Part shown: positions 7,516 to 64,000 of the stretch, in pieces
Numbering within the stretch: the first letter of the stretch is position 1
Layout of the letters: each line of letters opens with the position of its first letter
Assembly (NCBI GenBank): GCA_964016885.1
Contig: OZ024740.1
Span: forward strand, 348,440,001-348,504,000
DNA length: 64,000 nucleotides
From: Eledone cirrhosa
Lineage: Eukaryota
Direction of reading: 5' to 3'
The notes under the pieces: generated by a model
The model's database searches: none
Told to the model about the DNA's origin: nothing
The model's input: the letters and a program-made list of their open reading frames with translations, nothing else
Position numbers and translations under genes: made by a program

Positions 7516-7673
7516 ATATATATATATATATATATATATATATGCAAAAGTTTTATTTAAATTGTTGGGATACAACAAGCAAATATTTTTATAACTGATA
7601 TAAAGCACTCGACAAATATTTGGAGTAGATATACGATATTAATAAATGGAAACTATATTTATAAAACCATATT

Positions 7674-7738
7674 TATTTCATTATATATATTTCAAGGATA
7701 CCAAGTTACATTATGGTATGCCTTCATCAGACAAAATA
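7674..7738 (-). ncRNA. Hammerhead ribozyme motif
   Basis: Reverse complement: TATTTTGT-CTGATGA-AGGCATACCA..TGGTATCCTT-GAAA-TATATATA^ATGAAATA. Confidence 0.65.
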
Positions 7739-9203
7739 CAATATATAGCAGTTATATAAATAGACATTGACGTACCCCTTTAAAAATTGACCGTTGTTTT
7801 GGGAGGCCATCAGGATAGTGATTTGTTTACTTTAGTAAGTCATAGTGTTAAGAGTAAGTAAACAGATGGAGAGAGAGAGAGAAACGTGGAGAAAAGAAAG
7901 GGAGAGATAGATAAAGAAAAAGAAGAAAGCAAAAAGAAAAGAGAACAGAGGAAAAATAACGGGGAGATATCAATCCATCAGACAGAGAAAAAATCCAGAG
8001 AGAGATATATAGAGATAGAAAGAGGGGGGAGAGAACGAAAACCTTAAGTTATGTCATATTAAGTTGAGTTAACAATTGGGATGAAAAGCATAAATAAAAT
8101 TAGAAATATTAATATTCATGAATGGAATATAGATATATAATATGAGAAATTACACATTGTTTAATTATGATTAGATATTTAGTTTAAAATTGAGATCAAT
8201 ATATTAAACATTGGAATTTAAACATTATAAAATATATATATTGCTAGAGAGATTATCTATCGCATATTACATACACATAGGCAAAGGTACATAAATATAT
8301 ATATATACACACTCACTCAGAAAATACACATTATATCTACTCCCGCACATAATATATATATACAAAGCATAAGTGATTTTTTATTTATTGCCATACATTC
8401 CCTGTGTTATTAATTAAAAATTAAAAGTTTTTAGTATATATATATATAAATATATAGGATTAACTTTCATGCATTTATGGCTGTTAAGTTATGCATATCT
8501 GCAATCAAAAACTGCATGTGTAAGCCTTTACATTCACATCCATAATTCTTAGCTATACATGAATAGATATGTGTGTGCATCTTCAATTGGTATACACGCG
8601 TCACTCATGCGTATATACAGACAGACATATAATCATAAAAAGCATACAACACATGTATATGTATGTCAACACACACATATAGATACATTAGCAGTATATA
8701 GATATACGTATACATAAACATATAACATAGTACAATTGAGTATATAAAATACAAAAGGATTATATTTTGGAAATATAATTATATCAATATAACTTAAAAA
8801 GCAAACGAATTCTACAAATATCAAAATACTAAAATATCCCAAAATATTATAGAATATTTTAAGTTAAAATAATATGTTTAATATATTTAGTATAGAAATT
8901 AATCTTACGTATATTTTAATCAAGTTATTGAAAGGACAAACTTTTGAAAATTATGAGAAGCTATCAGAATAAAAGATAAATCTAATAAAAATTATGAGAA
9001 GCTATCAGAATAAAAACAAATCTAATAAAAATAAAAAATAAAATGAATCTAATAAAAAAAATGAAAAAATAAATAAAATGAATCTAATAAAAAATAAAAT
9101 ATTATATCAATATAACTTAAAAAACAAGGATTCTACAGATATCAAAATATTAAAAAGTTTTAAAATAAAATAATTTTAAAAAATAAAAAAAATATATATA
9201 TTG

Positions 9204-9268
9204 TATTTTGTCTGATGAAGGCATACCATAATGTAACTTGGTATCCTTGAAATATATATAATTAAATA
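9204..9268 (+). ncRNA. Hammerhead ribozyme motif
   Basis: CTGATGA-AGGCATACCA TAATGTAACT TGGTATCCTT-GAAA-TATATATA. Confidence 0.6.
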
Positions 9269-10068
9269 AATATGGTTTTATAAATATAGTTTCCATTTAT
9301 TAATATCGTATATATATATATATATATATATATATTAGAAAGTTTAAATTAAATTTCAATAAGAAGATCCATATTAAAGTATGCGTGAAAAAATAGTTTA
9401 ATTTGTAAATAATTCTGTTGGAAAGCCCTGTTTTATTACAAACATAACGAAACTTAAAATAATTATTTCTATTCTTATTTGTAGAATCGATACAGTATTT
9501 GATATTATATATAACATCGCCATATACAGGTACGACATGAATTTTCTAGCACCCTTGATTTCAGACGTGTTCCTGACTAGATAATAATTCTCTAGTATCA
9601 TATTACGAAGACAAAAAACTCCCCATTCTCCCACATCTATAATTACGGTCTCTTATTTAGGTACAAAACCAGCAATTTTGGTTGGGATGCGATGTCAACG
9701 AATTCTACCACAGTGTTGTTTGGTACATCATTTTATCGAATCTGGAAGGAGGAATGACAGAGTTACCATGGGGTGGGGGTTGAACACAGATCATTGAGAA
9801 GCAGAACAAAGAGCACATAAACCTAACCTCAACTTTAACGATATGGAAACACAAATGCCTAAAATTAAATCTAACGGCATGTTGAAACATTTAACTTTAA
9901 TCATCTGGGGAGATTGGGAAATACATAATTTTATCCGGTAAAAAATGGTGGCAGATCATCATTTGCCGAGGAATTCGTTAGTGAACCTCAAATACATAGT
10001 CACGTGAAAACATGTATAATGTTCGAGTCTAATGAATATTTGATCTTGCTTGCAGATTAGAAGTCAAT

Positions 10069-60640: not shown

Positions 60641-60840
60641 NNNNNNNNNNNNNNNNNNNNNNNNNNNNNNNNNNNNNNNNNNNNNNNNNNNNNNNNNNNN
60701 NNNNNNNNNNNNNNNNNNNNNNNNNNNNNNNNNNNNNNNNNNNNNNNNNNNNNNNNNNNNNNNNNNNNNNNNNNNNNNNNNNNNNNNNNNNNNNNNNNNN
60801 NNNNNNNNNNNNNNNNNNNNNNNNNNNNNNNNNNNNNNNN
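60641..60840. other. Assembly gap (200 N)
   Basis: Run of N. Confidence 1.
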
Positions 60841-63751
60841 TATATATATATATATATTATATTATATATAATATAATATATATATATATATATATATATA
60901 TATATATATATATATATATATTTATACATATATATATATATATATATATATATATATATATATATATATATTTATACATATATATATATATATATATATA
61001 TATATATATATATATTTATACATATATATATATATATATATATATATATATATATATATATATATATATATATATATATATCTATACATATATATATATA
61101 TATATATATTTATACATATATATATATATATATATATATATATATATATATATATATATATTTATACATATATATATATATATATATATATATATATATT
61201 TATATATGTATATATATATATTTATATATATATATATATATATATATATTTATACATATATATATATATATTTATACATATATATATATATATTTATACA
61301 TACATATATATATATTTATACATATATATATATTTATACATATATATATATATATATATATATATATATATATATATATATATATATATATATATATATA
61401 TATTTATATATATATATATATATATTTATACATATATATATATATATTTATATATATATATATTTATATATATATATATATTTATATATATATATATATA
61501 TATATATTTATATATATATATATATATTTATACACATATATATATTTTATACATATATATATATATTTATACATATATATATATATATATATATATATAT
61601 ATATTTATACATATATATATATATATATATATATACATATATATATATATATATATATATATATATTTATACATACATATATATATATATATATATATAT
61701 ATTTATACATATATATATATATATATTTATACATATATATATATATATATATATATATATATTTATACATATATATATATATATATATATTTATACATAT
61801 ATATATATATATATATATATATATATATTTATTTATACATATATATATATTTATATATATATATATATTTATTTATACATATATATATATATATATATAT
61901 ATATATATATATATTTATTTATACATATATATAATTATATATATATATATATTTATTTATACATATATATATATATATATATATTTATATTTATTTATAC
62001 ATATATATATATATATATATATTTATACACATATATATATATATATATATTTATACATATATATATATATATATATATATATATATATTTATACATATAT
62101 ATATATATATATATATTTATACATATATATATATATATATATATTTATATATATATTTATACATATATATATATATATATATATTTATATATATATTTAT
62201 ACATATATATATATATATATATATTTATACATATATTTATACATATATATATATATATATATATTTATATATATATTTATACATATATATATATATATAT
62301 ATTTATACATATATATATATATATATATATTTATATATATATTTATATATATAATTATACATATATATATATATATATATATATTTTTATATATATATTT
62401 ATACATATATATATATATATATATATATATATATATATATATATTTATATATATATATTTATATATATATATTTATACATATATATATATATATATATAT
62501 ATATATATATATATATATATATTTATACATATATATATATATATATATATTTATATATATATATATATATATATTTATATATATATATATATATATATAT
62601 ATATATTTATATATATATATTTATACATATATATTTATATATATATATATATATATATATATATATATATATATATATATATATTTATATATATATATTT
62701 ATACATATATATATTTATATATATATATTTATACATATATATATTTATATATATATATTTATACATATATATATATATATATATATTTATACATATATAT
62801 ATATATATTTATATATATATATATATTTATATATATATATATATATATAAATATTTATATATATATATATATAAAAAAATAATGAATAAAACAATGAAAC
62901 AGTTCTTTTATATGGAACTGTTTCATTGTTTTATTCATTATTTTTTTAATATTTTATCTTGACTCTGTATACCGTTTATCTTTCACCGAAAGTGATTTTT
63001 CATTGCATCTCTTCTCTCCATGATATCCGGATTACATTGAGTTCTTCATACGGATTGGACACTACCGTAAACTCTTGGTAGATTTATCTACATATATATA
63101 TATATTTATATATATATATATATATTTATATATATATATATATATATATATATATATATATTTATATATATATATATATATTTATATATATATATATATT
63201 TATATATATATATATATATTTATATATATATATATATATATATATTTATATATATATATATATATATATATATATTTATATATATATATATGTATAAATA
63301 TATATATATATATATATGTATAAATATATATATATAAATATATATATGTATAAATATATATATATATATATATATATTTATTTATATATATTTATATATA
63401 TTTATATATTTATATATATATATATTTATATATATATATATATATATATTTATATATATATATATATATTTATATATATATATATATTTATATATATATA
63501 TTTATATATATTTATATACATATATATATATTTATATATATATATATATATATTTATATATATATATTTATATATATATATATATATATATATATATATA
63601 TATATATATATATATATTTTTATATTTATATATATATATATATATATTTATATATATATATATACATATATATATATTTATATATATATATATATATATA
63701 TATATATATATAATATATAAGAACAAAAGATGGTTAAAGGAGTTCCATGTA

Positions 63752-63818
63752 TTTTATTATGCGCATTTCAAAAACAAACATCATCATGCAATAATATTTG
63801 TGTTTTCATCAGATAAAA
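63752..63818 (-). ncRNA. Hammerhead ribozyme in a fold-back terminus (63720-64000)
   Basis: Reverse complement: TTTTAT-CTGATGA-AAACACAAATATT..GTTTGTTTTT-GAAAT GCGC ATA^ATAAAA. Confidence 0.7.
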
Positions 63819-64000
63819 CAGGAGGACACGATATGAATGCTAAAAAACACTTGTGGATAGTGCAGTTTTAAATCAACAGTTTTAAATCAACCATCTTTTT
63901 TTCTTATATATTATGTATACTCCACTCCTACAAAATGTAGAGTGCTTCTTATCCGATATCTGCATTGCTTTATCGTACTACAATAAAACTCACCTCCTAC

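Follow-up and report, generated by a model that had tools for sequence, protein, structure and literature searches.

A duplicated bulged hairpin lies just past the two alternative ends of Hydra-clade Penelope-like elements in Eledone cirrhosa

Why do Penelope-like elements (PLEs) stop just short of the same small hairpin? The question is raised by a 64,000-nucleotide (nt) stretch of Eledone cirrhosa DNA (OZ024740.1, 348,440,001-348,504,000; GCA_964016885.1), hereafter the window, which holds several PLE remnants and 13 matches to the hammerhead ribozyme core, 10 of them in hairpin-carrying families (hammerheads were called by pattern match). The host genome (3.0 Gb) is AT-rich and dense in (TA)n; plain repeat finding drowned in (TA)n, and repeats in the window were detected by masked self-BLAST. 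The original prediction had listed 14 stem-loops shared by PLE-type termini, and all 14 are present where it placed them. Eleven are of the ACTC type, seven being exact ACTC..GAGTGC and four imperfect, at 10954 (ATTC), 22695 (ACTG), 46853 (GAGTAC) and 47303 (GAGCAC), and the three GCTC..GAGCT sites are exact. The list had omitted a hairpin at 4974-4994(-) and a second-type hairpin at 49322-49345(-), and the hairpin placed at 19397 is better read in a register beginning at 19388.

The motif is a bulged stem-loop, made of a lower stem, RCUC paired with GAGY, and an upper stem of at least three pairs of free sequence. The bulge, on the 3' side, is mostly 2 nt long with U as its first base, and a conserved RC directly follows the stem. 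The arms had been recognized correctly in the earlier description, but the bulge, the upper stem and the duplication presented below had been overlooked. We counted the motif in an unselected sample made of the window and 100 stretches of 10 kb picked by position (1,064,000 bases). A descriptor including the upper stem gave 74 matches, two of which count one 3' arm twice, compared with 6 when the sequence was reversed and 9, 6 and 11 in three shuffles; extrapolated, this count puts the hairpin copies of the host genome on the order of 10^5. Genome-wide, a single fixed pattern had 247 matches versus 7 for its reversed control. The looser initial descriptor separated weakly (33 real matches versus 13 in the control at 3 pairs). 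The arms are 8 to more than 30 nt apart, and the stability of single hairpins is modest, from -1.6 to -15.1 kcal/mol with z < -2 in 4 of 14. Selenocysteine insertion sequence (SECIS) and RNA polymerase III B-box identities were dropped, as the hairpin showed no resemblance to either. The Rfam scan of the window gave just microsatellite-driven microRNA matches and two weak hammerhead matches; no Rfam ribozyme or cis-element family fell on any hairpin among 150 of the 155 matches, and one sub-threshold match, Alfamo_CPB at 26533-26668, stops before the hairpin.

We then looked at where the elements end. From 368 copies of six families, 237 ends were mapped (63 copies were unmapped, 58 were without nearby (TA)n and 10 were ragged). 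In 216 of the 237, (TA)n starts 4-10 nt 5' of one of two hairpins, hairpin 1 (HP1) or hairpin 2 (HP2), and the unselected stretches gave identical modes. At the modal junctions, element and target have 2-6 nt of TA/AT in common, so that a fixed short distance 5' of the hairpin, on TA/AT microhomology, is what the mapped ends display, as had been proposed. The seven inverted partner ends named in support of that proposal were all found, entering (TA)n 7, 3, 6, 7, 8, 5 and 14 nt before the hairpin position. Family F4 has the order open reading frame (ORF), 3' untranslated region (UTR), hammerhead, End 1, hairpin and End 2. Its 30 copies divide into 13 that finish at End 1, 15 that finish at End 2 and 2 that are interrupted. 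The tail is therefore an optional 3' extension of 55-91 nt between two alternative ends, longer than the 30-40 bp described for PLE tails, and since HP1 and a spacer lie between End 1 and End 2, the PLE 'tail' is here HP1 plus spacer.

The sharpness of these ends bears on a reading in which the hairpins load a protein for some other step, such as ribonucleoprotein (RNP) assembly, hammerhead activation or control of ORF translation, and the ends adjoin them because the reverse transcriptase (RT) cannot start in stable or covered RNA. The steady position of HP1, 42-67 nt beyond the hammerhead core, and that of HP2, shortly before the ATG, would suit such a role, and passages on the Poseidon PLE report that its hammerhead cleavage depends on its protein (PMC11167929). 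However, the ends are concentrated in one 7-nt window ahead of each hairpin, with no spread over the tail's numerous other AT-rich sites: the 4-10 nt windows contain just 17 of 101 candidate AT-run sites, and AT runs of equal length in the rest of the tail hardly ever serve as ends. HP2 is, moreover, kept in non-coding families. We thus hold this reading to be improbable.

The hairpin of the original prediction is real, but there are two, one per alternative end: in seven families of this genome, one of them degenerate, it is tandemly doubled between the hammerhead and the start codon. In read-through copies of F1, F3 and F4 the second hairpin lies directly past End 2. In F4 this HP2 has a long loop (L191, L197 and L198): the loop is of 80 nt, arising from a tandem duplication, with a one-base bulge, and End 2 is still 8 nt before it. 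For F2, F5 and F7, HP2 was forecast and then detected beyond End 2 with patterns specifying the 5' arm only, which had 67, 285 and 118 matches, respectively, versus 0 in controls; these patterns confined the 5' arm to 12-16 nt of End 2, so the distance is bounded by the pattern. A complete HP2 was present in most of the 45 loci fetched from the three families, followed by the ATG in F2 and F5. For F12, a pattern restricted to the 3' arm matched 38 times; 32 of these matches are HP2 at a single offset, and between copies an A-U pair is replaced by C-G, a compensatory change. The pattern for F13 read-through copies, itself uninformative, had 0 matches.

For covariation, sites were chosen without regard to the upper stem, thinning left 26 HP1 and 24 HP2 variants, and pairs were counted on an anchored alignment (MAFFT misaligned the hairpins). 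Pairs 1-4 of HP1 were paired in 25, 22, 19 and 18 of 26 variants, compared with 19.0, 12.0, 10.7 and 10.2 expected, pair 1 being C-G in 13 and U-A in 12. The corresponding values for HP2 were 22, 14, 15 and 10 of 24, with 20.3, 10.5, 9.1 and 7.4 expected. Within this genome, 21 recurrent arm pairs gave 20, 16 and 16 paired for 12.0, 11.6 and 9.7 expected, and the lower stem of HP1 switches from G-C to A-U. The covariation that had been predicted for the stem is thus seen as compensatory pairs in HP1. G-U outnumbers A-C by 11 to 0 among recurrent variants of this genome and by 44 to 19 among all its variants, and this excess indicates that the sense strand is favoured.

These figures are relevant to the main rival of an RNA function, namely that the GIY-YIG endonuclease (EN) recognizes the motif on a DNA intermediate. 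The EN would read it in a tandem or circular intermediate, or in an extruded hairpin, and cut at nearby TA, the ends being resolution cuts. The hairpin arms do form a conserved interrupted palindrome, ends at TA/AT steps are what an EN preference would give, and passages of Craig et al. (PMC8557442) attribute the tail to EN-mediated resolution; earlier work cited in passages of Frangieh et al. (PMC11167929) has the Penelope tail required for EN recognition of plasmid DNA. An arm spacing of 8 to more than 30 nt and a covarying upper stem are, however, unneeded for a duplex site, the G-U excess on the sense strand speaks against a DNA reading, and in Poseidon internal RT starts equal to tail ends are shown directly (PMC11167929, in part). 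We consider action as DNA unlikely, though somewhat less so than the loading of a protein for another step.

Which elements carry the motif? The termini had been called unrelated. The proteins are indeed only 32-61% identical among carriers and their metagenome relatives, but every carrier with a known ORF is of the Hydra clade, as judged by protein marks and by these identities, compared with 20-26% to a Neptune-type protein. ORFs were traced for F2, F3, F4, F5 and F12 (leaving out F6, F8, F9, F13 and the 19388 family), and the five proteins match Hydra-type proteins; Pfam gave no match for any of them. A single ORF with RT and C-terminal GIY-YIG is seen in F4 (722-amino-acid (aa) open frame, L191) and F3 (L229). 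Passages of Craig et al. 2021 (PMC8557442) give as marks of the Hydra clade a C-terminal GIY-YIG, a CxCx5C linker, DKT, RWK, a canonical hammerhead and (TA)n. By regular expression the linker is present in L191, L229, L342 and 70 of 77 metagenome loci, these being, for this and all metagenome counts below, the best 77 of 406 loci from a profile search. DKT is found in L191, L229, L346, L330 and 75 of the 77, and RWR/RWK-like motifs occur in the Hydra-type proteins and in 67 of the 77. A canonical hammerhead, with predicted cleavage, lies in the pseudo-long terminal repeat (pLTR) of elements with (TA)n targets. By eye, no CCHH motif was seen in the EN of the printed Hydra-type proteins. In the 70 nt before the hairpin, alignment succeeds only between members of a subfamily pair, bar one 15-nt match. 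With such proteins and unalignable flanks, the carriers make up a single old clade; they are not one recent family, nor do they span all PLEs. The motif is a property of Hydra-clade PLEs and their non-coding derivatives, not of PLEs as a whole.

Among the derivatives, F1 and F7 keep hammerhead, HP1 and HP2. F7 (47087-47153, 50708-51270; G000:C4:360519622-360520626) is a retrozyme-like, non-coding hammerhead element of about 480 nt in tandem copies; both its hairpins carry the same GAGCU variant, which perhaps fits a different partner RT. Outside the clade, a Neptune-type family of the same genome lacks the motif at both ends, though (TA)n is its target too and about 40 nt separate its two ends. 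This family (41874-42479(+); L388-L397) is very young, with many 784-aa open frames and no canonical hammerhead by regular expression, and its sole read-through copy, L391, has a short CTC/GAG stem about 9 nt beyond the second end. The Naiad and Chlamys consensi have 15 matches to the 3' arm, none with a paired 5' arm by eye (matches split by line ends being missed).

Six Hydra consensi are given by Craig et al. (PMC8557442, File S7), and we inspected all of them for the hairpin. The motif is visible in Hydra-2_Amil (coral) and Hydra-2_Ajap (sea cucumber), occurs twice in tandem ahead of the ATG in Hydra-1_Ajap (sea cucumber) and has two variant forms in Hydra-1_Crog (copepod); the consensi of Hydra-1_Amil and Hydra-1_Obim stop before HP1. 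The 77 metagenome loci form 46 clusters at 70% protein identity, and 31 clusters have the hairpin; of the 15 without it, six were examined one by one. HP1 lies 42-67 nt past the hammerhead core, and hence 3' of the ribozyme as predicted, in 37 of the 50 loci with a hammerhead and enough flank. The remaining 13 comprise six that end in (TA)n before HP1, three with HP1 after an internal hammerhead, three with variants and one without a true hammerhead. Tandem pairs, 55-83 nt apart, are present in 27 of the 77 loci. Of 33 alignments from metagenome contigs with both copies, 15 ran off the contig end and 1 was a read-through; 13 of the 17 ends left fall 0-12 nt before a hairpin (one variant by eye), some of them in targets other than (TA)n. 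Three scans of viral contigs found no relative.

A neutral relic of common descent, combined with ends driven by microhomology, would account for carriers with a known ORF all falling in one clade and for ends on TA/AT matches. Yet with proteins 32-61% identical and flanks that cannot be aligned, the arms, the bulge and the pairing persist across phyla with compensatory changes. The covariation and the end positions contradict this reading, which is largely refuted and which we give hardly any credence. The original prediction had named as outcomes against it a lack of covariation, ends placed at random relative to the hairpin and families that were one recent family; the pairs covary, the ends are not random and the families are not one recent family.

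We therefore favour an RNA function: each hairpin probably binds the RT-endonuclease of the element on the RNA and thereby sets the start of reverse transcription. The endonuclease would nick a (TA)n target, and the freed 3' end would pair with the UA-rich bases immediately 5' of the bound hairpin, a match of 2-6 nt that would fine-tune the start base. As the RT would copy upstream, the hairpin in use would stay uncopied; initiation at HP1 would give End 1 and no tail, and initiation at HP2 would give End 2 and leave HP1 and the spacer as the tail. This scheme would call for a template with the hairpins located 3' to the body of the element, an arrangement found only in a read-through tandem (pLTR) transcript or in a circle made by the ribozyme. 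Hydra-1_Ajap, which starts at HP1 and ends after the hammerhead, is consistent with such a template. In 64 copies of F1, F2, F4 and F5 the 5' truncation points did not cluster at the hammerhead cleavage site, so that a cleaved linear template is unsupported.

Several observations weigh against this proposal. No mapped end came from 131 of the 368 copies, copies inside one family are not independent, 4 of the 17 metagenome ends are located elsewhere, and End 2 is about 17 nt from HP2 in some F7 subfamilies. F4 has a degenerate HP2 that bears a long insertion, and the covariation of HP2 is weaker (p=0.09 for pair 2; A-C 4, G-U 2). The shuffles ignore relatedness, which makes the covariation p-values optimistic, and the lower stem and RC tail, conserved in sequence, could also be read by a DNA-binding protein. 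Finally, the Neptune-type family forms two ends without the motif, which is thus not required for tails generally.

The closest parallel is Poseidon of Anolis (Frangieh et al. 2024). According to passages of that paper (PMC11167929), it too has two ends around an optional tail, an upstream hammerhead and an AT-rich target; initiation occurs inside the RNA near the pLTR-ORF junction, and in vitro the RT initiates at two internal sites equal to the genomic tail ends. Poseidon differs in being of another clade, with an RT that starts inside a stem loop described as 'AC-rich', and no conserved or duplicated motif is reported in the main text, as seen in part (PMC11167929). In the Hydra clade studied here, the proposed starts lie ahead of the ATG and 5' of a hairpin conserved in sequence, the tail measures 55-91 nt and the microhomology to the target is short. 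The word 'hairpin' does not occur in the main text of PMC8557442, nor is the motif annotated in its hammerhead table, in the portions available. Passages of PMC8557442, PMC4209133, PMC7229834, PMC13282606, PMC12632851 and a 2026 retrozyme preprint leave the motif undescribed, and full-text literature searches, whose reach excluded Repbase notes, subscription papers and figure-only supplements, returned no description of it. The PLE tail, internal initiation and the Hydra clade are already known; the hairpin, its duplication and the end rule appear new.

Small cis stem-loops that recruit their own RT near the priming site are found in the 3' tail of L2/UnaL2, in hepadnaviral epsilon and in domain IVa (DIVa) of group II introns. 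The L2 stem-loop sits 5' of the priming repeats and gets copied, whereas the hairpin here is duplicated, lies 3' of the proposed start and would stay uncopied when used. Non-LTR retrozymes, as presented in passages of PMC7229834 and bioRxiv 10.64898/2026.07.22.740005, resemble F7 and probably F1 in being short non-coding tandem hammerhead elements; they differ in that these passages give no RT-recognition motif, while F1 and F7 keep both hairpins. The likeness to telomerase drawn in the original prediction stands as far as a short alignment region beside a stem-loop, with a TERT-related RT, is concerned, a feature shared by the telomerase RNA template boundary element and SL5 of DRT10 (passages of PMC12632851). 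It fails in polarity: those stems are 5' of the template and halt synthesis, whereas the present hairpin is 3' of the first copied base, without repeat addition. A fold search with a Hydra-clade protein model had TERTs as its top structural matches, at a template-modelling (TM) value of about 0.3, and is silent on RNA binding.

More tentatively, and as less likely than not, one may picture a telomerase-like RNP in which a conserved RNA stem outside the copied region anchors the RT and a microsatellite primer aligns, at a set distance, with a small number of template bases; the doubled anchor would give a two-step life cycle, and the anchor, of about 30 nt, would be portable. If so, a tailed copy would retain one anchor and could move once more alone, an untailed copy would require a tandem partner or an RNA circle, and about 30 nt would suffice to send any upstream RNA into (TA)n. 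A motif found once per end at a fixed distance and across phyla offers a concrete rule for internal starts, the optional tail and the need for tandems in PLEs. It delimits element boundaries for the Hydra clade and is a candidate compact RNA handle for a telomerase-related RT.

Along the window, the hairpins are distributed as follows. HP1 of F9 is at 4974..4994(-). HP1 of F2 (7605..7626(-)) has a hammerhead core upstream (7689..7730(-), pattern match) and a tailed end that meets (TA)n at 7543; an inverted F2 copy (9202..9309(+), core 9212-9253) finishes 7 nt short of the HP1 position, at End 1. HP1 follows in an F1-like short copy (10727..10762(+)), in decayed form (10955..10976(+)) and with a long loop (19388..19439(+)). 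An F2 subfamily has HP1 with one stem mutation at 22696..22718(+), with its core at 22591-22628 and a partner End 1 near 20006. HP1 of F6 (24137..24163(+)) has the End 1 of its inverted partner at 23873, and that of the non-coding F1 (26707..26744(+)) has a partner End 1 at 26599 and End 2 at about 26775. The 3' part of an autonomous Hydra-clade F4 element (30986..32208(+)) contains the RT thumb, GIY-YIG, the CxCx5C linker and the 3' UTR; its hammerhead core (32143-32165) is followed by End 1 into (TA)n, making it a copy without hairpin.

Further on are HP1 of an F6-like family (35990..36015(-)), HP1 of F3 in its GAGTAC form (46854..46879(+)), HP1 of the non-coding F7 in the GGCTC..GAGCT form (47090..47117(+)) and another F3 HP1 (47303..47328(-)) with a partner End 1 at 50628. 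Pieces of a broken Hydra-clade RT ORF of F3 extend over 47986..49806(-) (tblastn, E down to 3e-47), and an F3 read-through copy has HP2 at 49322..49345(-), between End 2, which it closely follows, and the ORF; its 3' arm has one substitution here and is unaltered in other copies. The last three are HP1 of F7 (51194..51221(+); core 50941-50988, partner End 1 at 50707), of F8 (51522..51545(-); core 51607-51638) and of F5 (63919..63945(+)), whose inverted partner has its core at 63765-63812(-) and End 1 at 63719.

A hammerhead core at 19094-19118(+) belongs to a family ending in (TA)n without a hairpin. An inverted pair at 54473-55620, 97% identical, has cores at 54703-54728(-) and 55294-55319(+) with weak Rfam HH9 matches and no clear hairpin. 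Short fold-back insertions were seen in L003-L016, L009 and L014, with their turn at small palindromes within the hammerhead or close to it, and the (TA)n flanks of one Hydra family often host nested insertions of other Hydra families. Degenerate (TA)n arrays take up about 7 kb at 55950-63715, a region that also has inverted unique spacers and two assembly gaps. Unrelated to the hairpin, two copies of a non-LTR RT fragment, 82% identical, lie at 15347-18295(-).

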